DNA of 64,000 bases from Tubulanus polymorphus (lineage: Eukaryota; Animalia; Nemertea): positions 6,746,275 to 6,810,274 of the forward strand of contig NC_134032.1 in assembly GCF_964204645.1 (NCBI RefSeq), given 5' to 3'. Both the position numbers and the translations under genes were made by a program. Below are positions 6,949 to 26,082 of the stretch, one piece after another. The notes beneath the pieces are model-generated. The model did no database searches. It saw nothing but the letters and a program-made list of their open reading frames with translations, and had not been told where the DNA came from. Each line of letters begins with the position of its first letter. The first letter of the stretch is position 1.

Positions 6949-7781
6949 TAAAAATGTACTCTGAAAAAAAGAATATTCTCTATTTTGTTATGTCATTGAA
7001 GATTCTCTTCTATGGTTCTGCCAACGCAACTTCTTCTAATTTTGATTCCATGTGTGAATTTGTATAATTGATTTGCATTTGCAGGTATGAACTTGTATTG
7101 AATATTCAAACATTTATGTCCATTTGAGGATTATGAGTGTCCATAGATGGAATCAGGTTTCTTTTTAACGTTTTCATTACACTTTGATGTGTTGTCTTGA
7201 TGCCTTTCCTAGGGGCATCGTATAATTTTTATGGACTTTTGCTTTACTGAAGTCCATTTTTGCTCATGTTGGTACAAAATAAGTTGCGAAAGAAGCTTAG
7301 TTTCTCATCTGAACTTTCAAAATGTTCAATGGTGATCTATCAGCTAGATGATATGTCCAACATGACAGCCATGTCTGCCATCTTGAATTTTTCATTGGCA
7401 CCATACAGCCTGCCAACCTATATTGATTTCCTTGACCCTGGTGTATTAGCACGTAAGAGGTCTACCCCTATTAGAATTGGTGACCACCAATTGTCTAATA
7501 TTGCTGCTATATTATCCAATGTATGATTTTCTTCATATTCAATCATTAGCACTGTCACATGTTATATACCTGTAGAAATCTGTGACTAATGAGTATACTC
7601 TACACCAGGGGAGTTGAAAATTTGAATACATTACTACGTATTAGTCAATTTTTATGAAAACCATGTTATGTATTGATAATGATGTTAAATGGCACTTTGT
7701 CTACAAGGTATATATTGATTCCCCTATGTAGATTCAGTTACTTTCGATTTGAGGAATTTCTATCAACCTCAGGTACATGTA

Positions 7782-8239
7782 AGTAATAGGGGTAATAGGC
7801 TTTCAGATCAAAGGTCGAACGGTCGAGCTCGTAAAAAATGAAAAACATAAAAATAATTACAATTTCTACTTGAATTACTCGCGAAACTCATAAAAATGAA
7901 AAATAAATTCTCACACGCTCGAATTTATTTTTCATTTTATGAGTTTCACTCCTAATTCAAGTAGAAATTGTAATTATTTTTACGTTTTTCATTTTTACTC
8001 ACCCGCCCGTTCAACCTTTAACCCGAAAGCCTATTACCCCTATTACTCTTAAAATATTCATATATATATGAATAACATTTAAATCATTGAACTTCTAAAA
8101 TCAATTTTAATAAAAAATATAGTATTAAAATGGAAGCAAATAAGTACTACTGCCCAACATGTAAGATAAATATAGATAAGTCTCAAAAAGCAAGACACAA
8201 TAAAACTAAAACACATTTAGAGAATAAATTGAAACTAGA
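7782..8239 (+). repeat. Left TIR of Polinton; includes 266-bp internal palindrome 7782-8047 and the first ~36 codons of pPolB
   Basis: Reverse complement of 25626-26082 with three differences seen by eye (7805, 7983 and a 1-nt indel near 8210). Confidence 0.97.
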
Positions 8240-11200
8240 GTATAAAGATGATATATTAGAAACTAAATTAGAAGAATTAAAGAATGAAAAAGAAACATAT
8301 AAATGTGATACATGTAATCAATCATTCAGTGATAAAAGATATTATAAAGAACATTTAAAATCTATAAGTCATATTAGAAATAAGAATAATGATATTTTAG
8401 GTGAAGATTATTTTGATAATGATAACGATAAGAAACAGAAGACAATTAAAAGAATAAAAAATAAATTAAACAATAAAAGAACATATATGGAAGATGTAAG
8501 AAATTATATTAATTCATTAGATAATAAAAAAGATATAGAGATAACCGAAGCATTTAAAAGTGATATTGGTCCAGCAGCTATCGAGTTTAAATTTCATAAA
8601 GGAAAAACAATAGAAGAAAATAAAAAACATTTAGAAAATATGAAAGAAATAATAAAAATAATTACAGATGTTGAATATCCTAAAATTAGTATATCAGTTA
8701 AAGTAAAGTTTATAAAATCTGAAGATAAACCAATATATAATATAAATTCTCATTCACAACATATTATATCTAAACAACATATAGATGATAAATTAAATAA
8801 ATGTTATAATGAAGTAAAAACTAAAATAGAAGAGAAATATTTTGAAGGATCTGGTTTAATATTTGATGAGATAATATTTATAACTTTACATGTTTATAAC
8901 ACAAAATATAATAAGTTAACTAAATCAGAACCAATTGATGAAAATAATTTATCATATTATAAAGAACCTGATATTGAAGCATCGAGTTATATTAAACTAC
9001 CATTTAAAACTAATGCTGTAATAAATGTACAAAATTTTGATGATAAATGTTTACTATGGACTATAATAAGTTGTTTACATCCTGCAACTTATAATATTTG
9101 TAGATTAACTCATTATAAACAATTTGAAAATAATTATAAGATAGATAAGTATCCTGTTAGAATTAAAAATATTCCAAAAATAGAAAGAGATAATAATATA
9201 AAGATAAATGTATTTGATTTAATCAAATTACCAAATACAAAAGGAAATAATATTAAACATTATACATTAGAACCTTTATACCTATCAAAAGATTATGATT
9301 CAAATGATGTTATAGATATACTATATTATGAGAATCATTATATGTGGATTAAACAAATAGATTTATTTTTTAGAACAGAAAGTGATCACCATAATAAAAT
9401 ATATCTTTGTAGAAAATGTTTACATAAATTTAGTAATGAAAGTACATTATTAAATCATAAACAACTATGTGATAATCATGATTATTGTAAATTAGTTTTA
9501 CCAAATGAAAAAGATAAAATATTAGAATTCAAAAAATATGATTACAAAAATAAAGTACCATTTGTAATATATGGAGATTTTGAATCATTAAATAAAGAAT
9601 TAACAGATAAAGATAGAAAAGATATATATTATAAAAGAAAGAAATTAAATTCTAATGAAAGTGATTATTCAGATCCTATAATAACAAATACTATTAAAAA
9701 AATTCATCAAAGTGCTGCAGCTTTCGGGTTATATATTAAATCTGATTATCCAGAACTAATTGAAAGTGAATATTATAATTACAGAAATGAAAATGTTATC
9801 AATCATTTTTGTGACTTATTAATTGAATATGAAATAAGATTTAGTAAATTATTGAATACAAATAAAGAAATAATTATGACAGAAGAAGATAAAGAAGAAT
9901 TTGAGTTTGCAGATAAATGTTATTATTGTAATCAAGTATTCTATTCATCTGATAAAAAGGTAAGAGATCATGATCATTTGAATGGAAAGTTTAGAGGCGC
10001 GGCACATGAGAATTGTAATTTGCAAGCAAAGAAAATCAATTTTGTCCCCATTATATTTCATAATCTATCAGGATATGATGCACATTTATTTATCAAACAG
10101 CTATGTTATAAAATAGAAGAAATCAATAATGAAATAGAAATATTAAATTCAAATAGATCAAAAGATAAAATACCAACTTATAAATTTAGAATGTTAGCTA
10201 AAACATCTGAGAATTATATATCATTCCAATTTGGTTGTCTAAGATTTATAGATTCATATAGATTTTTAAATAGTTCATTAGATAACTTATCAAAATCATT
10301 AGTTGATGATGAATTAAAGATATTAAAAGAATATTACCCAAATAATGATGATTTTAAATTAATGAGATATAAAGGAGCAATTCCATATTCTTTCTATAAA
10401 AATCATAATGATTTTAACATAACTGAATTATTGAAAGAACAATTTTATGATGAATTAAAAAATGAATATGTTAAAGATGAAGTCTATAATAGAACATTGA
10501 ATATTTGGAATCATTTCAAAATAGAAAATCATGGGCAATTAGTAGATTTATATTTAAAATCAGATGTATTATTATTAACCGATATATTCGAAAGGTTTAG
10601 AGATGTAAACCTAAAATATTTTAACATTGATCCTTGTCATTGTTATTCATCACCAGGATTAACATGGGATTGTGGATTAAAATTTACAGATATAAAAATG
10701 GATTTGTTAACAAATATAGATCAATTATTATTATTTGAAAAATCTATAAGAGGAGGTGTTTCAGGTGTATTGGGTGATAGATATTTCAATGTAAATGATA
10801 ATCCTGGATATAAATTATTATACATAGATGCAAATAATCTTTATGGTTGGGCAATGATGGAACCACAACCTTATGGGATGTTTGAAATAACTGAAGTTTT
10901 ACAAATTGATAAATTTGATTGGAAGAAAAGAATTCTAGATATTGCAGATGATTCAGATACTGGTTACTTCTTTGTTGTAGACTTGGAATATCCTGAACGT
11001 ATTAAATTCAAATCTAGAAATCTAGCATATTGTCCCGAACATAAAACTGTTAAACATGAAGAATTATCAAATTATCAAAAAAGAATTAAACCCGATAATC
11101 ATATTCATACTGAAAAGTTAATGGTAACTCAAGAAGATGAATATAATTACGTTGTGCATTATAGAATGTTGAAGTTTTATTTGAGACAAGGAATGATATT

Positions 11201-12152
11201 AAGAAAAGTACATAGATATATTTCATTCAGTCAATCTAAATGGTTAGAAAAATATATAGATTTTAATACTACACAGAGAACTAAAGCTAAAACTGATTTT
11301 GAAAAAGATTTCTTCAAGTTAATGAATAATGCATTCTATGGTAAGACTTGTGAAAATATTAGAAATAGAAATGATATCGAGTTAGTCAGTAATGGTAAAA
11401 GAATTAGACATTTACAATCATATCCTAAGTTTATAGGTAACAGAATATTTGATGAAAATTTAGCTGCAGTTAAGATGAGAAGAACTTCAATGAAATTTAA
11501 TAAACCGATTTATGTTGGAGCTGCAGTTTTAGAATTATCAAAATTACTAATGTATGAATTCTATTATAATATATTACAACCTCATTTTGGGGAAAAACAT
11601 ATTGAAATATTATATTTTGATACAGATTCTTACATATTAAAGATAAAAACTGATAACATAACTGATGATTTAAAAACATTAAAACACCATTTTGATTTTA
11701 GTAATTATCCAAAAAATCATGAATTGTTTAGCAATGATAATAAAAAAGTTCCAGGGAAGTTTAAGGATGAATTAGGTGGTGAAGAAATGATAGAGTTCAT
11801 TGGTATTAGATCTAAAATGTATAGTTATAAAACTAAAACTCATGAATCAAAGAAATTGAAAGGAATTACCAAAAGCGTTGTTGAAAAGAATATTCATTTC
11901 AAAGATTACATCAATTGTATATTTAATGAAGAAGTTAGAAAACATAAAATGAAATGTTTAAGATCTGAAGATCATGAAATGTATATTGAAGAGATAGAGA
12001 AGATAAGTCTAAACCCATTTGATGATAAAAGATATATATTAGATGATGGTATACACACAGTCGCGTATGGTTGCAATTTAGATGAATATATAAAATTCAA
12101 AAGAGAAGAAACAAAAGAAAATGAGATTATGAAAAGGATTCTAGCGTGTTAA
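8130..12152 (+). CDS. pPolB: Protein-primed family B DNA polymerase with N-terminal C2H2 fingers, TP/vOTU-like region and inserted endonuclease VII (HNH)-like domain
   Basis: Intact 1340 aa. Exo I YGDFES, Exo II FHNLSGYDAH, Pol A YIDANNLYG, Pol B KLMNNAFYGK, Pol C YFDTDS. EndoVII-like CYYC...DHDHLNGKFRGAAHENCN. Zn fingers CPTC..H..H and CDTC..H..H. Candidate protease dyad DDKCLLW / NHYMW. Confidence 0.97.
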   Translation: MEANKYYCPTCKINIDKSQKARHNKTKTHLENKLKLEYKDDILETKLEELKNEKETYKCDTCNQSFSDKRYYKEHLKSISHIRNKNNDILGEDYFDNDNDKKQKTIKRIKNKLNNKRTYMEDVRNYINSLDNKKDIEITEAFKSDIGPAAIEFKFHKGKTIEENKKHLENMKEIIKIITDVEYPKISISVKVKFIKSEDKPIYNINSHSQHIISKQHIDDKLNKCYNEVKTKIEEKYFEGSGLIFDEIIFITLHVYNTKYNKLTKSEPIDENNLSYYKEPDIEASSYIKLPFKTNAVINVQNFDDKCLLWTIISCLHPATYNICRLTHYKQFENNYKIDKYPVRIKNIPKIERDNNIKINVFDLIKLPNTKGNNIKHYTLEPLYLSKDYDSNDVIDILYYENHYMWIKQIDLFFRTESDHHNKIYLCRKCLHKFSNESTLLNHKQLCDNHDYCKLVLPNEKDKILEFKKYDYKNKVPFVIYGDFESLNKELTDKDRKDIYYKRKKLNSNESDYSDPIITNTIKKIHQSAAAFGLYIKSDYPELIESEYYNYRNENVINHFCDLLIEYEIRFSKLLNTNKEIIMTEEDKEEFEFADKCYYCNQVFYSSDKKVRDHDHLNGKFRGAAHENCNLQAKKINFVPIIFHNLSGYDAHLFIKQLCYKIEEINNEIEILNSNRSKDKIPTYKFRMLAKTSENYISFQFGCLRFIDSYRFLNSSLDNLSKSLVDDELKILKEYYPNNDDFKLMRYKGAIPYSFYKNHNDFNITELLKEQFYDELKNEYVKDEVYNRTLNIWNHFKIENHGQLVDLYLKSDVLLLTDIFERFRDVNLKYFNIDPCHCYSSPGLTWDCGLKFTDIKMDLLTNIDQLLLFEKSIRGGVSGVLGDRYFNVNDNPGYKLLYIDANNLYGWAMMEPQPYGMFEITEVLQIDKFDWKKRILDIADDSDTGYFFVVDLEYPERIKFKSRNLAYCPEHKTVKHEELSNYQKRIKPDNHIHTEKLMVTQEDEYNYVVHYRMLKFYLRQGMILRKVHRYISFSQSKWLEKYIDFNTTQRTKAKTDFEKDFFKLMNNAFYGKTCENIRNRNDIELVSNGKRIRHLQSYPKFIGNRIFDENLAAVKMRRTSMKFNKPIYVGAAVLELSKLLMYEFYYNILQPHFGEKHIEILYFDTDSYILKIKTDNITDDLKTLKHHFDFSNYPKNHELFSNDNKKVPGKFKDELGGEEMIEFIGIRSKMYSYKTKTHESKKLKGITKSVVEKNIHFKDYINCIFNEEVRKHKMKCLRSEDHEMYIEEIEKISLNPFDDKRYILDDGIHTVAYGCNLDEYIKFKREETKENEIMKRILAC

Positions 12153-12180
12153 TCAACTTCAATAAAAATTTGTATAATAA

Positions 12181-12522
12181 ATGGAGAGTAAACAAGTACA
12201 CAGTGAATTCTTAGATAGAATTAAAGATACTTCAAGCGTCAAATCTGTAGATTATAAATTCAAAAAGTTAACAGAATTAACAATCCATAAGAAATATCTA
12301 ATTACAAATATTGATACAGTTGCTAACAAATATGGAGATAAATTAGTTATACACTTAGAATATGAAGGATTAAAAGGAAATACATATAAATTCAGAACAT
12401 ATTTACCAGATAGATTTCATAGATTATCAAGTGAAGATCTAGAAGAATTATGTTCTGGTGATTTCTATTTCGTATACAAAGGTAAGAATGAAAAAGGTCA
12501 CCATGAAATAGATTTCGAATAA
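12181..12522 (+). CDS. Small Polinton protein, possible OB-fold ssDNA-binding protein
   Basis: 113 aa directly after pPolB; beta-strand-like pattern KYGDKLVIHL..YLPDRF..FVYKG. The fold is an inference. Confidence 0.55.
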   Translation: MESKQVHSEFLDRIKDTSSVKSVDYKFKKLTELTIHKKYLITNIDTVANKYGDKLVIHLEYEGLKGNTYKFRTYLPDRFHRLSSEDLEELCSGDFYFVYKGKNEKGHHEIDFE

Positions 12523-12539
12523 GAAAATATGTAAAATAA

Positions 12540-13295
12540 ATGGTAGAATTAAAAGAATACAGAATATTTGTAGATTCTAGAAAACTTACAAATTATAAAT
12601 CACATAATTTATTAGTACAATTAGATAGAGAATTCAAAAATTGTGTAGATTTAAAATTAGTTAATATAAGTTTATGTAATTCTTTTTACAATGTATCGGA
12701 TAAAACTTTTGAACATAGAGGGTTTATGATTTATATGAGAAATAAAGATAAATGGTTTCATATATTTTTAAAACCAGGATTATATAATTTAGAATCATTA
12801 GCGCAGGAAATTAATAGAAGAGCTCGGTTGAAAATCGGGGGCACTTCTGTATTTGAAATTAAATTTAATAAAATTGATAGTACTAATAAAATTAGAATAA
12901 AGATATCTAATGAACAACATAAATTTATGGTAAACAAACCACTGGCTAAAATGTTAGGAATTAAACCGCTTACAGTTACTGGAAACGCAGAAGGTAGCTC
13001 AAATATAATACCTTTTACACACTTTTATATTTATTGCAATTTAATCGAGCCTACAAAAACTTTCGAAGCAACTAAAGAAACAATTTGTAATTCTAGTATA
13101 CTAAATATTTTACCGCTAAAAAATGTTAAACAATTTGGAACTCAAATAAATTATAATTTAACAGAATGTGATTTTAAACCATGCATTCCTAAATTTAATA
13201 ATTCTAAATTAGAAATTAGAAATCAAAATGGATATTTAATTGATTTGAATAACTTTCCTGTGATATATGAATTAGTTATAAGATGTAAAGAGTAA
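12540..13295 (+). CDS. Minor capsid protein (penton, single jelly roll)
   Basis: 251 aa; FYIYCNLIEP...ILNILPL...LEIRNQNGYLIDLNNFPVIYELVI matches the Polinton penton C-terminal pattern. Confidence 0.8.
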   Translation: MVELKEYRIFVDSRKLTNYKSHNLLVQLDREFKNCVDLKLVNISLCNSFYNVSDKTFEHRGFMIYMRNKDKWFHIFLKPGLYNLESLAQEINRRARLKIGGTSVFEIKFNKIDSTNKIRIKISNEQHKFMVNKPLAKMLGIKPLTVTGNAEGSSNIIPFTHFYIYCNLIEPTKTFEATKETICNSSILNILPLKNVKQFGTQINYNLTECDFKPCIPKFNNSKLEIRNQNGYLIDLNNFPVIYELVIRCKE

Positions 13296-13311
13296 TTTTT
13301 TCACTATATAA

Positions 13312-13659
13312 ATGAATATAACTGTCGGACCGAGTATATGTTTTGGATTTGATTTTAAACGTGAGAAAGAAATGAAATTTAACGTTAATGATGTAATTAC
13401 ACATATTAAAAATATTGCATTTTCTAATGAAACAACATTTGAGTATGAAACAACAATAGATAAAGAAACTTTTAATGTAGAAAAGATTACTGAGTCTTTA
13501 AGATTTTACGAATTAGATGAAGATTTTATCATCGATGATATTAAAAAAATAATAATTGAAATATATGATAATCATAAAACTAGTAATGAAATAAATGTTG
13601 AATTAATCATAAATAAGTTAACTAAATATTTTGAAGATAATAATTTCTTTGATAAATAA
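13312..13659 (+). CDS. Hypothetical Polinton protein
   Basis: 115-aa ORF with TATAAATG start, tightly packed among viral genes. Confidence 0.7.
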   Translation: MNITVGPSICFGFDFKREKEMKFNVNDVITHIKNIAFSNETTFEYETTIDKETFNVEKITESLRFYELDEDFIIDDIKKIIIEIYDNHKTSNEINVELIINKLTKYFEDNNFFDK

Positions 13660-13881
13660 ATGAGTGATAATAAGTGGATAATAACTGGATTATATAATGG
13701 CGCATTACTATCAGTTGGAACTGTTGGTTATTCAATGGTATTAAAAAAAGTATTCAAAATGGGAAGTGTTAATGTTGATAGATTTGATATAAATGATATT
13801 TTAAAGTTAACATTAGCAGTTACTTTATCTAATTTAACTATTGATTATTTGGAAAAACAAAAATATATTCCTCCCATATAA
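13660..13881 (+). CDS. Small hydrophobic (putative membrane) Polinton protein
   Basis: 73 aa with two hydrophobic segments; start abuts the upstream stop (TAAATG). Confidence 0.7.
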   Translation: MSDNKWIITGLYNGALLSVGTVGYSMVLKKVFKMGSVNVDRFDINDILKLTLAVTLSNLTIDYLEKQKYIPPI

Positions 13882-13905
13882 ATGCATAATTTTTTTGCTA
13901 AATAA

Positions 13906-14328
13906 ATGGCTTCTGCAATTATAACTATTATAGGATCGGCAATTGTTAACGCTTAAGCATTTACTGGTGGTGGTTATTTATTTAAACATATTGATAAAAA
14001 TAGTTCATTAGGAGAACAAAGAAGACATAACTTAGCGTTAGAGAAATACAATAAAGCTGCAGAAGAATATAGAGAAAAGAGGCAAAACTATATGGATTAC
14101 ATCAATAAAGAATTATATGGTCAGAAGATTTCACATAGAGATTTTCAATCAGTTGATGATGCAATGAGTTTATATAACGCAGTAACAAATAAAGAAAAAT
14201 TACATCTATACAAACCTAAATTATCAGATTATTATACCCCGAGTAAAGAACAACAGAAATATGAAATAATTTGGATTTTAGGTGGAACAGTTATTGTTAT
14301 ATTTGTTGCTTATAAATTTACTAATTAG
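13906..14328 (+). pseudogene. Polinton membrane/coiled-coil protein with premature stop
   Basis: ATG 13906 MASAIITIIGSAIVNA*AFTGGGYLF...EQRRHNLALEKY, in frame with ORF 14092-14328; TAA at 13954-13956; C-terminal TM segment. Confidence 0.8.
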
Positions 14329-14347
14329 TAATTTTTATTCTAAATAA

Positions 14348-14780
14348 ATGGAAGATAAAGTTGATAATATTGATATTATTCCTCATGATATAAATAAAAC
14401 TAAATTAAAAACATTTAGAAAAACAAATATTAGAATTTGAAAGTGACTTAAAGATAAAAAAGAAAAAATATTTAAAAAGTAAAATTATATATTATTTGAT
14501 TATAAGTGGTTCGGTTACAATTAGTTCTGTAATAACATTTCTAGCAATATTCAGTCCATTAACACCTTTAGCTATATCAATTGGTGTGTTAGGATTAAGT
14601 TCAAGTGTTTTAACTGGTATAAGTTCAAAATTAAATATAAAAAGTAATAAAGAAAAAATTAAAACTAATATAAAAGAAATTAATAAATTAAAGAATACAC
14701 TAGATTATATAATAAGTTTAAATGGTCATATAACAGTTGAAGAACAAGATAAATTATTAAAAGAATTAATAAATTATTAA
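14348..14780 (+). pseudogene. Frameshifted Polinton membrane protein
   Basis: AATAAATG start at 14348 (MEDKVDNID...); frame shifts near 14410-14430 into the hydrophobic ORF 14496-14780. Confidence 0.7.
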
Positions 14781-14796
14781 TTTTTTAATTATATAA

Positions 14797-16098
14797 ATGG
14801 GGTTTCCAAAAGCTTTCCAATATAATAAATCAATTAAATATAATATTCCGGCAATAGATTTTAAGAAAAATATTACATATAAAAATGTAGTTTTAAATTC
14901 ATTAACTAATTTAGAAATTTATGTTAATGAATCACAGTTTTTTATTTCTAAAATGGAAAATATATTTAATACATATGAAGTTACTTTTACTCGAGATGAA
15001 TATCATATATATAAAGTAAAATCTAATATGAAATATTGGCAGAATCAATTAAATTTTGCTGTTTATTGTGCAACAACAGGTTGTGGAATTAGTTGGAATG
15101 ATCATTTAAATAACTTAGATAAAAATTTGAAGTATTCTGATTTAAAATTAATTCACACAATATTTAGATTTCACACATATTTTCAAATCAGAATAATATT
15201 AAATGAATTAGAATGTCCTTTACCCGGGTCTAAATATTTTAAAGAATTAGATAATAATATTAATATATCCAAGTTTTATAAAATATGTAATGAATTTAAT
15301 ATAAATATTAATTCCGATTTCAGAGCGCATGGTAAATTGCAAGGTGTTGGTGAAGAGTATGAAATAAAAAGAATTGATTATATGCATAGAATTTCAGCTT
15401 ATCATAATTATAAAATTGATAATAATAATGGTTGGGTTAATTTCATTTTAGAAAATGGTGAAGGTTTTACAAAATCAGGTATACAAAGAATAAATCAATC
15501 TATTAGAATTTATTTGATATGTATTTTAGGCGCTCAAGTTGAAACAAGATCCCCAATAATTGGAAATGATAACACTTCATTCGATGCGCAGAAACAGTTT
15601 AAAGTTTTATTTGAAGATTCCATACATGATGATAAAAATAGATCGATTCCAGAAAACATTATAAGATATCAAAATTATTTAGATAAATCTCATGTAAGAC
15701 TTAATTATTGTATAGGCCCTAATCTATTAATTATTTCTAATGATTTAGTATTAAAGATGGGAAACATAATTGGTTATAATAATCTAATTAAAACTGCAAC
15801 AATAAATAATTCATTTGGATTAAATGATATAAATAAAAAGATTATTACTGCTCCAAAATTAATGGAAGGTGAAAAAAATAAAAAACATATTCAATCAACT
15901 GAAACTAAAACTAATAATATTAAATTAAATAATGATTCTAAAATAAAAGATTATAATACATCAGAAAATATAAAAACTGATAATATTCAACATGATATAA
16001 TTAAACTAAATGATGATAATAAATCCCATGAAAATACTAAATTAGCTATAACTTGTATAGGAATTGTAATCGGAGGAATATTATATTTTAAATTTTAA
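14797..16098 (+). CDS. Hypothetical Polinton protein with C-terminal TM anchor
   Basis: Intact 433 aa; motif YWQNQLNFAVYCATTGCG; hydrophobic C-terminus. Confidence 0.8.
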   Translation: MGFPKAFQYNKSIKYNIPAIDFKKNITYKNVVLNSLTNLEIYVNESQFFISKMENIFNTYEVTFTRDEYHIYKVKSNMKYWQNQLNFAVYCATTGCGISWNDHLNNLDKNLKYSDLKLIHTIFRFHTYFQIRIILNELECPLPGSKYFKELDNNINISKFYKICNEFNININSDFRAHGKLQGVGEEYEIKRIDYMHRISAYHNYKIDNNNGWVNFILENGEGFTKSGIQRINQSIRIYLICILGAQVETRSPIIGNDNTSFDAQKQFKVLFEDSIHDDKNRSIPENIIRYQNYLDKSHVRLNYCIGPNLLIISNDLVLKMGNIIGYNNLIKTATINNSFGLNDINKKIITAPKLMEGEKNKKHIQSTETKTNNIKLNNDSKIKDYNTSENIKTDNIQHDIIKLNDDNKSHENTKLAITCIGIVIGGILYFKF

Positions 16099-16114
16099 TT
16101 TTTTTATTATATAA

Positions 16115-17574
16115 ATGGATGAAGAAATTCCATTGGATACTTTTGGTGACGCCCCTGGTATAAGTGATGAACCACAAACTGATTTTAATGAAACTAATAT
16201 TGATAATGATGATGAATCAGCATATAATTCTAATTTAGCAGATAGTGGTTCTAAAGCCCCATCAACAGATGAATTTGATAGAAGAACTAGATCAAGAATA
16301 AATCCTGAAAATGAAATTCCAGGTTTATAAAAGGAAGATTTAGAAAATATTGGATTTATATATAAGTTTCAACATGTATTTAAAGATTCTGGATATAATA
16401 TAAATAATAGAGGCGCCAGACTTTTAGTACAAGATTTAAAGTTTTTAGATGGTGAATATTATTATCGTGTGAAAGAAAAATCGGATTATTATATTAATAT
16501 CTCTAATAAAAATCAAGACAAAATAGTAGCAAAATCAACTTTGCTTAAGTCTGACTCATTACTATCTAGAATTAAAAGAATAAGTAATATTATGAAATAA
16601 AAGATGTAACACAAGAAGAAATTATTAAAAATAGAAAAGAATTTAAACAAAGAATTAATGAATTATTTGAAACAATCAAAGATAATCCAGAAACAGAAAC
16701 AACTTCTGAACAGAATATAACTTCCAAAACTAGTAAACTTAAATCAAACACTGAAGTTCAAACTGAAAAACTTTTACCGAATGGATTACTTGATGCAACA
16801 GATCAAGAAATAGAAGCTTTAAGTATGTTTTCTAAAAAAACAATTAGAGAAATAATAAGTATACGAAATGATGCCGATAAAATTGCTCGCGAAAAACATA
16901 TTAGATATAATAAAATTAAACCTTTAGAAAATAAATTATTTGACACCAGAAAAGAAATAGAACAATTAAAATTAGATAGAGAATTTAAAGTTATTGAAGA
17001 AATTGAATTTAAAAAAAGAAATGCATATTTAGAAAAAGAAATTGATGATTTAGAATATAACATAGAATTTCAGAAAGAAAAAATGAAATTATTATTAAAA
17101 TCATACGATTATTGTATCAATAGATTAAAAGTTGTTGTTAAAGAGTTAATACTAAAACCAAATTCTGACATATCACTAAAAGATAGAATAAAATTATTAT
17201 TTAAGTTTGAAGGAATAACAGTTCTTTCAATTCTAACAGCTGTAACTATGTTATTCACAACAATAGGTTTAGCTATATCAAATTCACTGAAATCTACACC
17301 TACTCCAAATAAACCAGATAAACCTCCAGGTAATAATTCTATACAAGATAAAGTTAAAGATGGTTTAAAGAAATTAGCAAAATATTTATGGGAACTATCT
17401 AAAAAATCTGCTGCAGCATTGCCAGGAGTTATTGCTTCAATTGTTGGTTTTATATTGAAATCTGCAGGAAACATTATTAACTTTGCTGCTGAACATATTA
17501 TTTTATTTTTAATTACAGTTGTAAGTGCTATTATTTTTGGTTTAGTGAATATGATATCAAAAGATATCAAGTAA
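16115..17574 (+). pseudogene. Interrupted coiled-coil/membrane Polinton protein
   Basis: TATAAATG start at 16115; TAA at 16328, after which the reading frame continues (KEDLENIGF...); frameshift near 16585 joins ORF 16825-17574 (coiled coil plus hydrophobic helices). Confidence 0.75.
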
Positions 17575-17646
17575 ACCATGATATCAAAAAATATCAAGTA
17601 AACCATGATATCAAAAAATAAATAATTAATTTTTTTTGTTAAATAA

Positions 17647-18894
17647 ATGAGTGGGAGTTATATAAGTCCTTCGAAGAATCATAGAATATCTAATGCTATT
17701 AAAGCAGAAAGATCACATCATATAATTACTCATAACCCTTCAAATATTAATCCCGATGAAACTTTATACGTTAGAATCCCGAGATTAACACAAAATACTT
17801 TTTATGTTCCAAATAGTATTTATTTATCAGCTGATATAAAAGTAATCGGTAATAATAATAATTATGTTGTTGATAATGTTGGAAGATATTTGATTAAAAA
17901 GTTAACAATAAAGATTGGTCCAGAAACAGTTTTCTCATTAGATGATTATAATTTATTTTCACATTATAAAGATTTATGGTTAACTAAAGAAAATAGAAAT
18001 AATATGATATTTCAGGGTATTCAATCAGAAAACCAAAATAAATTAAGATCAGAAGCTAATAGCGCAATATTAACTAATGATGTAGATAAATTGATAAAAA
18101 GTATATATGGAAGCAAATATAAAATTCCATTAGACTTTGAATTGATAAATAATAATGCACCTTTATATAAATACGCAATTCAAGAAGATATTATATTTGA
18201 GATAACATTTGCTCCTGTAAATGAAATTGTATTATCTAGCGTTAATAAAGATATGAGTTATAAATTATCGAATATATGTTTAGAATATGACACAGTAACT
18301 GATGAAAATATTTCAAGTATAATTCAAACTCAATACAATCAAGGGTTTTCATTATTATATGATTATATTGATAAATTTAAAACTGTAACTATTAATGCAA
18401 ATGATGAAATAATTAATGAGAATATTAACTTTCCTAGAAGATCTATTAAAGGTATATTAATATTTTTTACCATTGGAACGTATACTAATGGTGCAATAAA
18501 TGTTGATAATTATTATAATCCTGAAATAACAAAAGTAGAAATAACTATCGAAGGAATAGCGAATAAAATATTTTGTCAAGGAATGAGAATGATTGATCAA
18601 TGGCCAGAAATTAGAAAACATTTTATGAATGAAAAAGTGAAATCATTTGAAAATTGTAACATTAATCAAATTGATTATTATACCGGTAATAAATATGCAT
18701 TATGGTTAGATTTTAGAACAACTGAAGATAATTCATTACATGGTTCTGGAAAAAAACTACAGAACACTAAAGATGGAATACAATTATTCATGATAAAGGA
18801 AAAGGGAATCAAAAATTTTAAAATGCATATTTATATTATATCTGACGCGCAATTAAATATTGTAAATTCACAATTAGATAGTGTTATGTATTAA
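17647..18894 (+). CDS. Major capsid protein (double jelly roll)
   Basis: Intact 415 aa, beta-rich; N-terminal IITHNPSNINPDETLYVRIP and C-terminal YALWLDFRT..LHGSG patterns resemble invertebrate Polinton MCPs; size and position fit. Confidence 0.85.
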   Translation: MSGSYISPSKNHRISNAIKAERSHHIITHNPSNINPDETLYVRIPRLTQNTFYVPNSIYLSADIKVIGNNNNYVVDNVGRYLIKKLTIKIGPETVFSLDDYNLFSHYKDLWLTKENRNNMIFQGIQSENQNKLRSEANSAILTNDVDKLIKSIYGSKYKIPLDFELINNNAPLYKYAIQEDIIFEITFAPVNEIVLSSVNKDMSYKLSNICLEYDTVTDENISSIIQTQYNQGFSLLYDYIDKFKTVTINANDEIINENINFPRRSIKGILIFFTIGTYTNGAINVDNYYNPEITKVEITIEGIANKIFCQGMRMIDQWPEIRKHFMNEKVKSFENCNINQIDYYTGNKYALWLDFRTTEDNSLHGSGKKLQNTKDGIQLFMIKEKGIKNFKMHIYIISDAQLNIVNSQLDSVMY

Positions 18895-18926
18895 AATTTT
18901 AACTTTAATAAAAATATATATAATAA

Positions 18927-19841
18927 ATGGAAGGAGGTAAAGTATATGAAAGAATCAAAGCTGATAAAGAAATCAATGATGATTTGTATTATGTAATACC
19001 TTATAAAAGAATAAATGAATATATTGGAACATTTTTATTAAATGAATTAAATCAATACAAAGAATATTTAATTGAACGTAATAATAAAAGTGGTGTTGTT
19101 AATAATAGTGTAATTGATAATAATGTAATACCTACTACACCTGTAATACCTACTACTACATCTGTAATACCTACTACATCTGTAATACCTACTACATCTG
19201 TAATACCTACTACATCTAATAATAGAATAATATTAGATGTTAGTGAAAATAGAAATTATTGTGGTTATTGTAATGGTGAATTTTCAAACGCTCCATCAAA
19301 TTGGAATAAACATATGAATACAAAGGTACATATTACTAATGTTATAGAACGTGTTGGTTTAAGAGAATTTATAGAACACCCATTTAGATATGTTACGAAG
19401 TTTGTTTCAAATCAAAAAGTAAATGGTAAAGAATTATATAAAGATTTTTTATTAGCAACACCTAATAAAGATGAATTAGATTTAACCGATGCTAATGAAA
19501 TATTAGGATCAAATATTGTAAATGAAATATTAGGAGCAAACACTAATAAAGATGATAATGAAAATGATGCCGCCATACGCCCACATGGTGATATAGTTAC
19601 AGATAAACATATTGATAATAAAGATTCTATGAAACATAAAGAAGAAACTATTGATGATATAATAGAAAGGATGAATAAGTTTAAAAATGAAACAACTATT
19701 GATGATGCGGTAAAAAGGGTGAAGAATAAGTATAAAAATAATGAAGAATTTGAAGAAGAAAATTCGGTAGAGCATTTAAATATGTTGTTAGGGTCTGATA
19801 GTGAAAGTGATTCAGAAAGTAATTATCTAACACTCGAATAA
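18927..19841 (+). CDS. Hypothetical protein with (VIPTTS)n repeat, C2H2-type Zn finger and acidic tail
   Basis: 304 aa; 18-bp coding repeat at ~19125-19218; CGYC..HMNTKVH. Confidence 0.75.
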   Translation: MEGGKVYERIKADKEINDDLYYVIPYKRINEYIGTFLLNELNQYKEYLIERNNKSGVVNNSVIDNNVIPTTPVIPTTTSVIPTTSVIPTTSVIPTTSNNRIILDVSENRNYCGYCNGEFSNAPSNWNKHMNTKVHITNVIERVGLREFIEHPFRYVTKFVSNQKVNGKELYKDFLLATPNKDELDLTDANEILGSNIVNEILGANTNKDDNENDAAIRPHGDIVTDKHIDNKDSMKHKEETIDDIIERMNKFKNETTIDDAVKRVKNKYKNNEEFEEENSVEHLNMLLGSDSESDSESNYLTLE

Positions 19842-19896
19842 TAAAAGTTGAAAATTTTATAAAATAATAGTAAATAAAAAAAGGTTTTGATTATTT

Positions 19897-20022
19897 AAGG
19901 TATCTAATAGGGTATCAGGTATTAGGGCATCTAATGGAGTATTAGGTATTAAGGTATCTAATGGGGTATTAGGTATTAAGGTATCTAATACATAGGTATT
20001 AGGGTATCTAATACATAGGTAT
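19897..20022. repeat. ~24-27-bp self-complementary tandem repeat at the convergent gene junction
   Basis: About 5 units of AGGTATCTAAT(GGGGT)ATTAGGTATTA between the stops at 19841 (+) and 20031 (-). Confidence 0.85.
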
Positions 20023-20030
20023 ACAAATAG

Positions 20031-20644
20031 TTATTTTATAAATTTATATTCATATGGAAATTGTAATCTCATTAATAATTTTGAACCTCTATTATTCTTT
20101 AATTTATTCATATATTCATCATGTAATTCAGGAGGTATAATTTGATTTTCTTCCAATGATTGTTGCATAGATTTTCTATCTTTGTTGTAGAATAAAACTA
20201 GAAATCTTATATTCTCTCTAAAATCTTTCACAATTGAATTATATTTCTGATTTAAAACCCAAGTTGTTATCCCAAAATGTCTACCAGAGAAAGCTAAATA
20301 ACATAACTCACTTTCTCTAATTTTAGAATCATGTAAATTTGCGCAATCATCAATAATAAATAATGTATTAGATATTTATAAATATCTAATGTAATTTTTA
20401 TACAATTATCTAAATTATCTTTTACTGTTTTAGAATTTAATATAATAAACTTTTTATCTTTAAAAACTATATCTCTATTATACGTTTCATTCATTTCATA
20501 AGTTGGGCAGAATAATATTATATTATCAAAATGATTCTGATAAATAGTTTCTAATAAATCTAATATGAAGTGTGTTTTACCACAATTTGTAACTCCAGTT
20601 ATTAACATATTATGTGGTTCAAATATAAACAAATCTTTATTCAT
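20031..20644 (-). pseudogene. A32/FtsK-like DNA packaging ATPase, frameshifted
   Basis: Walker A GVTNCGKT; after a frameshift near 20372, Walker B LFIIDDCA, then SGRH and NQKY, continuing into ORF 20031-20231. Confidence 0.9.
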
Positions 20645-21725
20645 TTATTCTTTTAATTTTACTAGATAAAATCCATTCATTAAATTTATCATCATATCCT
20701 TTATATTTCACCAAAGAATACTTTTTTCCTTTAAGAGTTTTAGTTTTTAATACCTTTTCTATTTTGTATTCTATTTCATCTGGATTTGGTACTAATGATA
20801 ATTCTTGTTCATAAAAATAACCTAATATTTCTTCATCTTTTAAATCAAACAATTTATAAACAAATGGTTTAGTTAATATTATCTTTTTAATTTTAAAAAT
20901 TTCTTCTGTAAAATTAGGGGTATAACCTTTATAAAATGTTTTTCTATATTTAGAAATTCTAACATGTTGTCCTATTTTAAATTTAGGTTCTCCAAAATCG
21001 TGTGTAACAAATGCTCCATATAAATTATTCCAAACTATTTCTGAATTTTCTTCTTTTCTAGCTTGTATAGGTTTCATATTTATAGAACTATGTTTAGAAT
21101 TATTATAACCTTTCACTAAATCATCTAACACATCGATATATTTATATGTTTCATTAGCGGTGAAATATTTCCACATTCTAGTTTTCAATGTTTTATTAAA
21201 TCTTTCTATAACAGATGCTTTTTTATCTGAATGTGTTGAAAAATATTCTACATCGTTATCAATTAATAGTTTTTTGAAATGTTTGTTATAAAATTCTTTA
21301 CCTTCATCAAATTGTATTTTATCTGGGATAGCTTCTTTAAATATTAATTTGAAAGAATTTGTAACTTCTATACCAGTTTTATTTTTAATCGGGATACTCC
21401 ATGCGTATCTACTGAATATATCTATAACATTTAGTATCCAAAAATATCCTTTGTTATATTCTTCTAAGTTTTTCATATCAATTAAATCAGCTTGCCATTG
21501 TTGGTCAATATATGAAACCATTACTTTTCTTGTTAAATATTTTTTATCCATCTTTTTATGAATTTGATATGTGGGTTGATTTTGTAACCATGATTTTAAT
21601 TCACTATATTTTATATTGCTATTATCAGATTAAATTTTATCCCATAATTCCGAAACACTTGAATATGAAACTTCACTTTCTGGGTTATAATATAACGCTC
21701 TTAAATATTGTTCTTTTTTCATCAT
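20637..21725 (-). pseudogene. Retroviral-like (rve) integrase with C-terminal chromodomain; premature stop in N-terminus
   Basis: DDE triad WQADL / QFDEGKEF / VIERFNKTLK; chromodomain YKIEKVL..LVKYKGYDDKFNEWI. In-frame ATG at 21725 (MMKKEQYLRALYYNP) with TAA at 21632-21630. Confidence 0.92.
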
Positions 21726-21728
21726 ATT

Positions 21729-22136
21729 TTAATCCATTAATAATATTTTAGATTTATTTTCATTTGATTTATTTTCTGGTGGTTTATTGTCTGTACATGG
21801 GTAACGAAGTTTCCGTTCATCATTATCATTATCACTTTCATTATTATTAAATTTTGATTTATATATTACACCGGATAATATAATAACTGTTACTAATCCA
21901 ATTGTAATATATAATTTATAATTACTTCCAGCATTAGAAGAATTAGATGGATTATTATTTGAATCAATACCACCGTGTGGGTGCTGTACGGCACCATCAG
22001 ATAAAGTCTGTGATTCATTTATATCAGTTAATTTCTTTTTCTTAGCTTTTTTTAATTCTGAAGATCTTTTACCTAATTCTCTTGCCCATTTAATTTGTTT
22101 CTCGGATCTAGCCTTTTTCTTAACGCCATCACTCAT
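21729..22136 (-). CDS. Hypothetical Polinton protein, basic N-terminus plus one TM segment
   Basis: 135 aa; AATAAATG start; TM LYITIGLVTVIILSGVIY. Confidence 0.7.
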   Translation of the reverse strand: MSDGVKKKARSEKQIKWARELGKRSSELKKAKKKKLTDINESQTLSDGAVQHPHGGIDSNNNPSNSSNAGSNYKLYITIGLVTVIILSGVIYKSKFNNNESDNDNDERKLRYPCTDNKPPENKSNENKSKILLMD

Positions 22137-22731
22137 TTATTTTAGTTAATTTTTGTTCTGATTCATTTTCTGTTTCACTGTTTGGTTGTAGTACATCTGT
22201 TTCGTTCTTACCTGATTTATATTCCATAGGTTTGATATTCGAAAATGTTATGACGCCAGTAGAAATCAATGTCATAACCGATCCTAATTGAAATGAAGCA
22301 TAACCGACCCATTTTTGTAATTCAGTCATAACTAAGTAGTCATTTTTCAAATCACTATATAATTTATTTTCATCATCAATTGGTATTAACTGGTTACATA
22401 ATTTTGAATAACATTTGACAATACCATCTGAAATAGAATCATTTATTCTAGCTAATCTTGACTCTTCATAAATCTTAAAATATTTTATTACTTTTTCTTT
22501 ATTCATATTATCTAATTCTTGAAAAGTTATTGTTTTACCAATAAACTCTTTAGTTTTTCCACTCGCAATCAATAGTTCTAGATGATGCTTACAATATAAA
22601 TAGTATTCATAATCTATATTGTTATTAACTTGAATAGAATTAGAAACAACTGTATCTTTATTATCACTAATACCCAAATCATCTAATGTCTTTTCAATAT
22701 CAATATTATTCTTATTAGATTTCTTTGACAT
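22129..22731 (-). CDS. Hypothetical Polinton protein
   Basis: 200 aa; T-run followed by TATAAATG start. Confidence 0.75.
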   Translation of the reverse strand: MSKKSNKNNIDIEKTLDDLGISDNKDTVVSNSIQVNNNIDYEYYLYCKHHLELLIASGKTKEFIGKTITFQELDNMNKEKVIKYFKIYEESRLARINDSISDGIVKCYSKLCNQLIPIDDENKLYSDLKNDYLVMTELQKWVGYASFQLGSVMTLISTGVITFSNIKPMEYKSGKNETDVLQPNSETENESEQKLTKINE

Positions 22732-23010
22732 TTATATTAGAGGAAAAAAGCAAAAAAAATATTATAAGTATTCTTCAAATGATACTAGCTAGTTAAAGCT
22801 AAAGAATTCTAGTATTAGTTATTGTTTTTTTAGTATTTTTTATTTGTGATATAAAGTATTCTTTTTTGAAAAGAAAATATTAAAAATATAATAGAATTCA
22901 CAAGCTAGTTGAAGGTATGTAATTTTTATTATATTTTATTTAAATTCTATTTGATATCTCACTACTTTTGTTTATCTATTAGGAGCAGTAGTTATAACTG
23001 TCCAGATAAG

Positions 23011-23685
23011 TCATTTCGGATCCTTGATATCAAATTCCTCAACGTATCGTTCATTATTTGGATTATTATTCCATTGATCAATAAATTTCTTTGCTTTTGT
23101 TAACTGTTCTGAATATAACTGTAAATCTAGTTTATTAGATTTGATTTGATTTTCTTTCTTTTCTAAAGGCCTTAAATTTTTCCAATTCCAAATAAGTCTT
23201 TTATTGTATTCATCATTCATGTTAAATTTAGATATTGGTAACACGTGATCAATATGGTAATAATCCCCATAATTATCTATATTCATTTTATCATCGAATT
23301 GAAATATTATCCATGATTTGAGAAATTCATCTGAACAACCCAATAAATTAGATAGTGTTTCTGAATGTGTTTCTTTGTTGAATAATTGTGTTAATCTAGA
23401 CCGTAAACATTGTTTCAATCTAAAATTAAGATCTGTTTGATATCTTCCTCTCATATATTCTGTCATATAATCATTATAAGATTCTCTATTATCTTCTCGG
23501 TATTGTTTGGTATATAGTTTAAAACAAGTTTTGCAGCAATATTGAAAACCATCTTTGCTAGTCTTGCGCTTACTAAATTCTGTTAATGATTTATCTAATT
23601 CACATTTAGAACACTTTTTGTAATATATGTTTATAACGCCAGTGTTATTTGTAATATTGATAGTTTGTGGTTGTTCTGGTTCCAT
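23011..23685 (-). CDS. Zn-ribbon plus HNH-type endonuclease of the kind common in large dsDNA viruses
   Basis: CSKC..CKTC N-terminal ribbon; YHIDHVLP...WKNLRPL...NQIKSNK HNH-like core. Confidence 0.8.
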   Translation of the reverse strand: MEPEQPQTINITNNTGVINIYYKKCSKCELDKSLTEFSKRKTSKDGFQYCCKTCFKLYTKQYREDNRESYNDYMTEYMRGRYQTDLNFRLKQCLRSRLTQLFNKETHSETLSNLLGCSDEFLKSWIIFQFDDKMNIDNYGDYYHIDHVLPISKFNMNDEYNKRLIWNWKNLRPLEKKENQIKSNKLDLQLYSEQLTKAKKFIDQWNNNPNNERYVEEFDIKDPK

Positions 23686-23799
23686 TTATTATACGTATTT
23701 TTTTATAATCCTCTTCCATTTCTTCGACCAACGTCATCCTTTTTCATTCCTCGCTGCTTTTGATAAGTTGTTTCGATTCCTTGATATCTAAATAATACC

Positions 23800-24148
23800 A
23801 CTGGGCAAAACCGCTCTTATAGGAGCGCTTTTGCTTAATGCGCATGCGTTAATCATAATTATATATTCATTCTGTAAATTCTGTAAAATAGAAACGACCG
23901 ACATAAAATATCAAAACGTGTTCGCACTAAGCAAAACCGCTCTTATTGGAGCGTTTTTACTTAATACGCATGCGCTAATCATAATTATATATTCATTCTG
24001 TAAAATAGAAACAACTGAACATAGAAAATTCAAACGCATGTGCACTAGGCAAAACCGCTCTTATAGGAGCGTTTTTGATCAATGCGCATGCGCTAATCAT
24101 AATTATATATTCATTCTGTAAAATAGAAACGACCGAACATAAAAATTC
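23800..24148. repeat. Three ~118-126-bp tandem repeats, each with a ~30-bp imperfect palindrome
   Basis: GCAAAACCGCTCTTATAGGAGCGCTTTTGC-like units at 23805, 23931 and 24049, each followed by (T)GCGCATGCG-like and TTCTGTAAAATAGAAAC. Confidence 0.9.
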
Positions 24149-24236
24149 ACCAATCAGATTTACACAATACATTATACAAGTATGTTCGATCGTTGTATTG
24201 ACAAAATTTATAGTTTCAACTAATACATTATTTTAT

Positions 24237-25007
24237 TTATAATTCCAACCAGAACTTTTCAATTTCTGGATCATTGTCAAACATTTTTTCAATATCGTTT
24301 AAGTATTTTACTATATCAGAAAATGACAAACTTAAAAATTGGAATCTTTTATATGTAATTAATCTCCCTACACTTCTTAATTTTCTTTCATACCCAGCAC
24401 TAATACCTATATATTTTTTAACCCAAGAAGTCCAAGAAATCCCCGCAGTTTGTTTATTAAACATTAAAAATCCCCTATTTAAACAATCCCCGAAAATGAT
24501 ATAATCCCATAAATGCTTTGCTTTTTTAAATAACAAGGTTCTATAATTTTTTTTCAATAAAACAGTTATTTCATTAAATGATGTTACACCTTCTATTTCT
24601 TTAAAACTTACATCTTTTTCATTTGATAATTTTGATTTTAAAAACTTATTTAACTCATTTCCGCTCATTTTCTTTTTAGTTTTTGTTCCTTTTAGTCTTA
24701 ACAATATTTCTACATTGGTTGTTGGTCTTTTCGGAAATGATGTTACGCTTGATTGCTGGTTTTCTATTATTTTTTCTAAAATTAATGTCATTTCTTGATG
24801 GTAATATAAATGTTTTTTAACTTCTTCTAACGTTTCATCTTCTATATCGAAAGATTCTTTTACTTCAGTACCCATTTCGGTTGGTTCATCTTCCATTTCG
24901 GTTGGTTCATCTTCCATTTCGGTTGGTTCATCTTCCATTTCGGTTGGTTCATCTTCCATTTCGGTTGTCCTCTGAGAATCAAGAGTACTTCTTGATACAC
25001 ACGACAT
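24237..25007 (-). CDS. Hypothetical Polinton protein with (EMEDEPT)n acidic repeat and helical, possibly DNA-binding C-terminal domain
   Basis: ORF open from 25016; first ATG at 25007; 21-bp coding repeat at ~24870-24967. Confidence 0.75.
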   Translation of the reverse strand: MSCVSRSTLDSQRTTEMEDEPTEMEDEPTEMEDEPTEMEDEPTEMGTEVKESFDIEDETLEEVKKHLYYHQEMTLILEKIIENQQSSVTSFPKRPTTNVEILLRLKGTKTKKKMSGNELNKFLKSKLSNEKDVSFKEIEGVTSFNEITVLLKKNYRTLLFKKAKHLWDYIIFGDCLNRGFLMFNKQTAGISWTSWVKKYIGISAGYERKLRSVGRLITYKRFQFLSLSFSDIVKYLNDIEKMFDNDPEIEKFWLEL

Positions 25008-25498: not shown

Positions 25499-25734
25499 TC
25501 AAATAGAATCATGTTCTAGTATAAACATCGGATCCTCAACATATTGTTCATTATTTGGATCATTATTCCATAATTCAATAAATTTCTTTCCTTTTGTTAA
25601 CTGTTCTGAATATAACTGTAAATATTCTAGTTTCAATTTATTCTCTAAATGTGTTTAGTTTTATTGTGTCTTGCTTTTTGAGACTTATCTATATTTATCT
25701 TACATGTTGGGCAGTAGTACTTATTTGCTTCCAT
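25499..25734 (-). pseudogene. Chimeric mini-ORF: pPolB N-terminal Zn finger (from the TIR) fused to a copy of the HNH protein tail; 1-nt deletion
   Basis: Restoring one A near 25655 gives MEANKYYCPTC...HLENKLKLEYLQLYSEQLTKGKKFIELWNNDPNNEQYVEDPMFILEHDSI* (78 aa). Confidence 0.65.
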
Positions 25735-26082
25735 TTTAATACTATATTTTTTATTAAAATTGATTTTAGAAGTTCAATGATTTAAATGTTATTCATATAT
25801 ATATGAATATTTTAAGAGTAATAGGGGTAATAGGCTTTCGGGTTAAAGGTTGAACGGGCGGGTGAGTAAAAATGAAAAACATAAAAATAATTACAATTTC
25901 TACTTGAATTAGGAGTGAAACTCATAAAATGAAAAATAAATTCGAGCGTGTGAGAATTTATTTTTCATTTTTATGAGTTTCGCGAGTAATTCAAGTAGAA
26001 ATTGTAATTATTTTTATGTTTTTCATTTTTTACGAGCTCGACCGTTCGACCTTTGATCCGAAAGCCTATTACCCCTATTACT
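25626..26082 (-). repeat. Right TIR of Polinton; includes 266-bp internal palindrome 25817-26082
   Basis: Reverse complement of 7782-8239; followed by TSD CATGTA. Confidence 0.97.

Follow-up and report, generated by a model that had tools for sequence, protein, structure and literature searches.

A two-part start signal resembling poxvirus post-replicative promoters in one clade of animal Polintons

How are the genes of animal Polintons expressed, and are these elements autonomous or satellites of another virus? This long-open question is raised by a stretch of DNA from the nemertean Tubulanus polymorphus (contig NC_134032.1, positions 6,746,275 to 6,810,274 of the forward strand). The whole stretch of 64,000 nucleotides is called the window here, and all positions are counted from its first letter. 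It contains an integrated element in which most genes begin with the same short motif.

A preliminary description of the window had placed this motif in the interval 12160..23710 and had interpreted it as the poxvirus-type promoter of a virophage. The interval does lie within one virus-like element, but the true borders of that element are wider, at 7782-26082 (18,301 bp). Its GC content is 24% (76% A+T), compared with 33-45% in the surroundings. The element is an integrated Polinton, or Maverick, because it combines a DNA polymerase of family B (PolB), an rve integrase with a chromodomain, an A32-type packaging ATPase, a double-jelly-roll capsid protein, long terminal inverted repeats (TIRs) of the form AG..CT and a 6-bp target-site duplication, CATGTA. 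Judging from sequence, its genes are rather probably read by the pox-type RNA polymerase of a co-infecting virus, through promoters of the poxvirus post-replicative type.

The motif at gene starts

Fourteen of the 17 gene starts of the element lie in WATAAATG. The same motif surrounds 12 of the 707 other ATGs (Fisher p=6e-20), giving 26 occurrences among the 724 ATGs of both strands. TAAATG alone is found at 14/17 starts and 46/707 other ATGs (p=9e-14). In the flanking DNA, whose ATGs serve as a rough host control, WATAAATG occurs at 10 of 1794. The motif is enriched over both sets of ATGs and is not Kozak-like; A+T background and host start context were two of the objections that the preliminary description had raised against itself.

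All 14 coordinates that it had listed are ATGs preceded by WATAA. These start contexts stand, but four of the genes are not intact: 13906, 14348 and 16115 open broken genes, and the ATPase gene that starts at 20644 is frameshifted. It had also been right that most starts are free of stop/start overlap, since a junction (gap 0) is found at 13660 alone, 1 of the 14. The seven genes for which a T-run had been reported are exactly those that fit T5-N7-9-TAAATG, with runs at -18..-10. The capsid gene provides an example (17629..17649, + strand): a T8 run at -17..-10 is followed by a spacer and by a TAAATG that spans the ATG. A more constant feature had been missed, namely a T at -12, which is present in 13 of the 14 WATAAATG starts.

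The three other starts (PolB at 8130, the integrase at 21725 and an open reading frame, or ORF, at 25007) have TAAAAT at the ATG or one base before it. This form is less discriminating, as it also occurs in 7 of 72 genes of AT-rich sister Polintons.

Gaps between genes are short, as described: on the plus-strand arm they measure 0-72 nt, with 6/10 between 16 and 28 nt. They had been used as an argument against transcription by RNA polymerase II (Pol II), which fails: in sister Polintons that lack the motif, 49 head-to-head pairs lie 3-66 nt apart. In five sister loci (L017, L032, L047, L048 and L063) head-to-head ORFs are separated by 3-9 nt and have no fixed start motif. Some of these close pairs may reflect wrong start calls.

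Restriction to one capsid clade

Relatives were collected by capsid alignment, using the best 80 of 157 metagenome loci and 3 contigs from metagenome-assembled genomes (MAGs). The capsid gene starts in TAAATG in 13/13 of the loci L001-L013, whose capsids are 52-76% identical and whose GC content ranges from 20 to 44%. Among the 80 loci, the start is TGAATG in L015, is unreadable in 15 and is of another kind in the remaining 51. In a capsid tree of 71 rows, made by a quick maximum-likelihood search and rooted at the midpoint, the 14 TAAATG rows are united with L015 in a single branch (SH-aLRT 99), and 43 rows are without the motif. L015 is thus a single loss of the motif inside the TAAATG branch.

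The motif is not confined to the capsid gene. Of 836 ORFs, 464 were compared, each at least 70 aa long, with a closed 5' end, not shadowed and with a homologue in another locus. TAAATG starts were found in 60/74 clade genes and 5/390 sister genes, including 0/72 in the 18 most AT-rich sister loci. After near-copies had been removed, the counts were 54/65, 4/303 and 0/64, respectively. Most of the 14 clade exceptions are either ATGs inside broken genes or have a TAAAT or TAAAAT that is shifted one base upstream.

Each of the four resolved subclades has the motif, and one at 36-44% GC has it in 9/11 genes. It stays constant across the clade loci while gene order and orientation vary. In 81 viral loci that had been fetched for another purpose, 27/773 ORFs start in this way (25/631 in the AT-rich ones). 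The start motif is a trait of one capsid clade.

Capsid proteins of the clade also appear in nine assemblies labelled Bartonella, where the contigs are no longer than 1.6 kb. They probably stem from host DNA that was carried over, which hints that there is a terrestrial host too. Fragments of sister-group Polintons (L081-L083) lie within three prokaryote MAGs, probably through binning contamination.

Nature of the signal

The starts of the clade share a profile that extends upstream of the motif. It is A-rich at -18/-17, has T at -14..-12, continues with a spacer that contains G/C and ends in ATAAATG(G/A). T at -12 is found in 48/54 clade starts, compared with 47/135 other TAAATGs of the same loci (p=5e-12), and T5-N7-9-TAAATG in 20/54 and 4/135. 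In 40/54 clade starts, positions -18..-12 consist of A and T only. The last T of the core stands 8 nt before TAAAT, and where a T-run is present (50 starts) it ends 6-8 nt before TAAAT in 28.

In several clade genes TAAAT precedes the ATG by one base, an offset more in keeping with an initiator of transcription than with a context for translation. Together with an upstream element at fixed distance, it points to transcription initiation. The motif has T at -3, a position at which the AT-rich sister genes have a purine in 52/64 cases; sister Polintons have retained a start context of the Kozak type. Clade genes that are arranged head to head, 19-72 nt apart, carry TAAATG on both sides in 7/8 pairs. 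Because of these pairs and of the T at -12, composition and stop-start coupling are excluded as explanations of the two-part signal, and overlap with a poly(A) signal is unlikely.

The layout, compared by sequence, resembles that of poxvirus post-replicative promoters: a TAAAT initiator lies over the start codon, and an A/T- or T-rich core precedes it at a fixed short distance. In the portion of PMC5294985 that was available, the vaccinia late promoter has a T-containing core 5-7 bp before TAAAT(G/A). The available text of PMC12722222 places intermediate and late cores ~11 and ~6 nt before the initiator, respectively, and gives TAAAAT as the intermediate initiator of G8R. These consensus positions come from one review and one introduction. 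Slippage on the AAA gives rise to poly(A) leaders, according to the accessible parts of PMC12722222 and PMC6211774. The late genes of entomopoxviruses and fish poxviruses are marked by TAAATG.

The poxvirus interpretation of the preliminary description therefore holds for the two-part layout, which is neither compositional, Kozak-like nor a stop-start effect and which belongs to one clade. The spacing is close to those of the two vaccinia classes but identical with neither. T6-N7-9-TAAAT may also resemble the concatemer-resolution sequence of vaccinia.

Two other candidate signals were rejected. A trans-splice acceptor is present at 2/54 clade starts, which is background level, and a canonical TATA box at -35..-22 at 5/54, compared with 6/64 controls. 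An 11-mer similar to the vaccinia early core occurs twice on the + strand, at 7834-7844 and 7892-7902 (238-296 nt before the PolB ATG), and is a weak lead; 6 of its 11 matches in the window are these two sites multiplied by the terminal palindrome and the TIR, which inflates the shuffle statistic.

A proposed helper virus and a possible mechanism

A pox-type helper is the best explanation of the signal because the element has no detectable RNA polymerase. Searches of its ORFs in Pfam, NCBIfam and PHROGs returned no RNA polymerase, and the largest unassigned ORF matched no polymerase-like fold; nor was a gene for a transcription factor detected. Initiation would take place within the AAA of TAAAT, by the RNA polymerase of a co-infecting pox-like virus. 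The resulting mRNAs would receive a poly(A) leader and could be translated without a Kozak context. Capsids might then be assembled beside the helper's factory, and integration would proceed through the integrase of the element itself. "Pox-like RNA polymerase" is a safer name for the helper's enzyme than "poxvirus", because yeast virus-like elements also use TAAAT-type initiators.

Several observations weigh against such a helper. The spacing of 8 nt between core and initiator falls between the vaccinia classes and on neither, and a short A/T-rich motif could have converged with that of another polymerase. The AT-rich controls do not reach the A+T content of the clade (coding GC 34% vs 28%), the list of clade loci was drawn after the capsid starts had been seen, and the tree is a quick one. 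The compact layout is common to sister Polintons without the motif. Retention of an integrase with a chromodomain means that a nuclear step is needed. No pox-derived gene was detected in the present copy or in 32 selected proteins of clade loci; the cargo detected in the clade consists of a deoxynucleoside kinase (dNK) and an HNH nuclease of the endonuclease-VII type.

Nor was a helper found through the genes that might be shared with viral contigs. The capsid search of these contigs gave nothing, and the dNK search gave one 37% match, with no named relatives. Relatives of the HNH gene were found in 80 viral loci at 27-39% identity, without the start grammar.

Coding sequences give no positive indication of cytoplasmic expression. 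AATAAA is equally undepleted in clade and sister genes (observed/expected 0.97 and 0.92), and the depletion of splice sites is alike in both. T5NT, considered as a signature of poxvirus early terminators, is depleted in the clade (observed/expected 0.37 vs 0.80), but the depletion is unspecific, as other long homopolymers are depleted too. In PolB there is one T5NT, compared with 3.7 expected (p~0.09).

By analogy with mavirus, the element might conceivably protect its host against a virus. With its broken integrase and ATPase, the present copy probably does not serve by itself as an inducible defence unit. A more far-reaching proposal can be put forward tentatively: one animal Polinton lineage may have left host-directed expression and become endogenous virophages of poxviruses, the start grammar being the footprint of an undiscovered branch of poxviruses in marine invertebrates, ribbon worms among them. 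The palindromic ends may then permit processing by the telomere machinery of the helper.

Alternative explanations

The signal could be the promoter of a viral-type polymerase that likewise initiates at TAAAT but whose owner is not a poxvirus: an asfarvirus- or egovirus-like virus, a large DNA virus of another kind, or a linear element of the cytoplasm that has a polymerase of its own. This is unlikely, although it has several points in its favour. In yeast virus-like elements, transcription begins at TAAAN and is accompanied by poly(A) slippage (available part of PMC6211774), late promoters of African swine fever virus (ASFV) are likewise short and two-part, and TAAAT is found within ranavirus polymerase promoters. 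The accessible portion of the ICTV profile lists no Poxviridae for marine invertebrates, and dNK and HNH genes are generic cargo of large viruses. The details fit less well. The upstream conserved sequence (UCS) of the yeast elements, ATNTGA at 20-40 nt before the ATG, precedes 1/54 clade starts. The ASFV late initiator TATA (TATAAATG) is present in only 20/54, and the invariant part of the motif is TAAAT. A TAAAT locked onto the ATG and preceded by a T-run is the documented pattern of poxviruses. No more probable is an autonomous nuclear element, in which a compact core promoter or leaderless start would serve the host's Pol II, perhaps steered by the element's 304-aa finger protein, and the likeness to poxviruses would be convergent. 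The chromodomain of the integrase and the large number of copies in the genome do show a nuclear phase, sister Polintons, which do not have the motif, are just as compact, and the 304-aa ORF is present in 4 clade loci and 0/67 sister loci. In several clade loci, however, no such gene adjoins the capsid gene, and its sequence is variable (32-39% identity). The canonical TATA box is no commoner than in controls, the T at -3 contrasts with the purine retained by sister Polintons, and the ORFs of the element gave no match to TBP or TFIIB.

A pox-type helper also has to be set against explanations that need no promoter. If the motif acted on RNA, it would be the poly(A) signal (AATAAA) of the upstream gene, or a stop-start or reinitiation site that overlaps the next ATG. 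As many as 25/54 clade starts read AATAAATG, and exact stop-start junctions occur at 13660 in the window and once in L003. AATAAA is nevertheless lacking in 29/54 starts, and the TAA is the upstream stop in 1/54. For 24/54 starts there is no called gene end on the same strand within 100 nt, and there is no upstream transcript to end between the head-to-head genes that both have the motif. The fixed T at -12 would be left unaccounted for as well, and a role in RNA is very improbable. Chance, or a bias in ORF calling, can practically be dismissed. In its favour are the 76% A+T of the element and the fact that, by definition, a TAA will often stand before a first ATG. The controls refute this explanation: all 13 homology-defined capsid starts of L001-L013 have the motif at 20-44% GC, compared with 0/72 AT-rich sister genes and 25/631 ORFs of AT-rich viral loci.

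Comparison with known systems

Polintons/Mavericks (Polintoviricetes, "adintoviruses", PMC8502044) share with this element a PolB beside the TIR, rve and A32 genes, a double-jelly-roll capsid, AG..CT TIRs, a 6-bp duplication and a length of ~18 kb. The element differs from them in its TAAATG grammar, which is absent from 67 sister loci, in the 267-nt palindromes at its ends, in its HNH cargo (dNK in clade loci) and in that no cysteine protease was detected. The adintovirus paper does not mention promoters.

Polinton-like viruses (PLVs) have been found in the occlusion bodies of entomopoxviruses (PMC11296320). AHEV_PLV1/2, CBEV_PLV1 and Ca_PLV1 are likewise small capsid-encoding elements and are proposed to be poxvirus parasites; in the part of the paper that was available, the link to the helper is made by co-purification, without promoter analysis. 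As far as the accessible gene lists go, on which this comparison is based, these PLVs differ in being ~12 kb long, in having no rve integrase (either none or a tyrosine recombinase) and in carrying protease, L2-mu and lipase genes.

Mavirus and the endogenous mavirus-like elements (EMALEs) of Cafeteria are, in the available sections of PMC10945749, similar in being integrated elements with PolB and rve, without an RNA polymerase and with late promoters of the helper's type. Their host is a protist and their helper is the mimivirid CroV, with a TCTA motif, and both dependence and protection have been shown experimentally. Here the host is an animal, the motif is pox-type, and the system is known from its sequence. 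Mimicry of helper promoters is known from virophages of protists, and in a preprint that was accessible in part (10.1101/2025.10.09.676808) reactivation is confined to endogenous virophages whose late promoters are helper-like.

The intermediate and late promoters of vaccinia, as given in the accessible sources, have the same A/T core, short spacer and TAAAT(G) or TAAAAT over the start, and the T-run class matches the late type. Their spacers are ~6 (late) and ~11 nt (intermediate), compared with ~8 nt here, and no early class is clearly present in the element. The yeast plasmids pGKL1/2 are linear PolB elements related to Polintons, with a TAAAN initiator and a dependent element that uses the polymerase of another. 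According to the available part of PMC6211774, they differ in requiring the UCS, in having an RNA polymerase of their own or a shared one, and in lacking a capsid and an integrase. An egovirus preprint, in its accessible portion, ties relatives of poxviruses to Polintons of Trichomonas through a KilA gene and not through promoters. The literature covered, to which subscription journals and bioRxiv supplements did not belong, yielded no account of pox-type promoters in a clade of Polintons.

A promoter that is shared by a whole clade provides a sequence marker by which Polintons can be sorted according to their likely helper. If that helper is a poxvirus, the hosts of the clade would indicate where unknown poxviruses occur outside the insects and vertebrates currently given as their hosts, and heritable poxvirus virophages would be present in animals.

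Ends and copies of the element

The target-site duplication CATGTA lies at 7776..7781, and the identical 6 bases are at 26083-26088. The left TIR (7782..8210, +) begins with AG and contains the first PolB codons, and the right TIR (25654..26082, -) ends in CT. Each is 429 bp long, with 2 mismatches between the copies.

The outermost part of each TIR is an imperfect palindrome of 267 nt (7782..8048, mirrored at 25816-26082), which is predicted to fold as one long DNA hairpin of -91 kcal/mol. It is formed by inverted repetition of the terminal sequence, at both ends of the element, and DNA reads show that 63 nt at its centre are missing from other copies. Such ends are reminiscent of opened hairpin telomeres. 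Palindromes of this kind were not seen in the 14 related loci inspected, most of which do not include the ends.

Reads from a DNA run with the same species label cover the element several hundred-fold, compared with 30-80 reads at sites in the flanks. In the same run, 1606 reads pass from an element terminus into dissimilar sequence, and 20 reads span the empty insertion site. Because of this read depth, of the reads that leave the termini and of those from the empty site, the element is a multi-copy family whose insertion at this site is polymorphic. Five genes are broken in the present copy, the integrase and the ATPase among them. An Rfam search gave no match.

Gene inventory

Eleven genes read rightward. 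PolB (8130..12152, +, 1340 aa) starts in TAAAATG and has N-terminal zinc fingers and an endonuclease-VII insert (Pfam Endonuclease_7, E=2.5e-4). Six exonuclease and polymerase motifs, located by pattern matching, follow in the correct order; the ORF gave neither a Pfam PolB nor a PDB match. The next ORF (12181..12522, +, 113 aa, TAAATG start) is possibly a single-strand binding protein of the phi29 type, for which the lead is an Atlas score of 0.84 to a cluster with 44% PF17427. A 251-aa ORF (12540..13295, +, TAAATG start) is, by its size, a candidate minor capsid protein, with a weak match to DUF5901.

These are followed by a 115-aa ORF with a T6-N7-TAAATG start (13312..13659, +) and a hydrophobic ORF of 73 aa (13660..13881, +), the only one whose TAA is the stop of the upstream gene. 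Four genes with T-run and TAAATG starts come next. A conserved gene of ~140 aa (13906..14328, +) is broken by a stop at 13954, and a membrane-protein gene of ~140 aa (14348..14780, +) with a weak SLATT match loses its frame before 14438. A conserved protein of 433 aa (14797..16098, +), common to sister Polintons, has a C-terminal membrane helix; searches of PDB sequences, of BFVD and with VIA-align gave no match, the best VIA-align hit (Z 5.7) being a helical patch. The fourth is a broken coiled-coil/membrane gene of ~480 aa (16115..17574, +; first stop at 16328).

The double-jelly-roll major capsid protein (17647..18894, +, 415 aa) was modelled by AlphaFold with a pLDDT of 86.8. The best Foldseek match of the model is the PBCV-1 capsid (E=1.6e-16). 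The mavirus capsid ranks 39th with 10% identity, below the capsids of PBCV-1 and iridoviruses, and the closest relatives by sequence are Polinton-like loci. The rightward series ends with the 304-aa ORF (18927..19841, +, TAAATG start), which has a C2H2-like finger.

The remaining genes lie on the minus strand. The packaging ATPase (20031..20644, -; Pfam Pox_A32, E=4.8e-6; TAAATG start) is frameshifted, its first frame stopping at 20296. The integrase (20637..21725, -; Pfam rve, E=6.6e-9) has an in-frame stop at 21632 and a TAAAAT-ATG start. Upstream of it are a 135-aa membrane ORF (21729..22136, -, TAAATG start) and a conserved 200-aa ORF with a T6-N9-TAAATG start (22129..22731, -). The HNH nuclease of the endonuclease-VII type (23011..23685, -; PHROG 1035, E=3.4e-19; TAAATG start) is present in 6 clade loci and 0/67 sister loci, and no gene on the same strand ends within 550 nt upstream of it. 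An adenain-like cysteine protease, which is common but not universal in Polintons, had no Pfam match among the 17 ORFs, several of which are without assignment.

A 256-aa cargo ORF with a TAAAATG start (24237..25007, -) occupies a slot that is lacking or substituted in most copies. Read depth drops at 24518-25151, the only homologue named is in Tubulanus polymorphus, and Atlas matches stay below 0.9. The variable slot as a whole (23884-25151) has about tenfold lower read depth, with other sequence there in most copies, and tandem repeats of ~110 nt lie at 23800-24140. Runs X7, X8 and X9, of a kind that was not recorded, gave 3, 2 and 16 contigs, those of X9 mostly at 22391-23885.

The dNK cargo is found in two clade loci (L003:10340-10981 and L007:2895-3377). 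The two kinases are 25% identical, and one has a TAAATG start; their divergence suggests two separate acquisitions.

Other features of the window

The flanking transposons are of animal type. Five to six tandem units of ~2176 bp at 39200-51500 encode a PHD-finger/transposase-like protein, and a 624-aa transposase-like ORF lies at 53936-55810 (-). A broken endonuclease/reverse transcriptase of the LINE type is found at 56813-58994 (-), and a tandem array with a 61-bp unit at 27528-28565.

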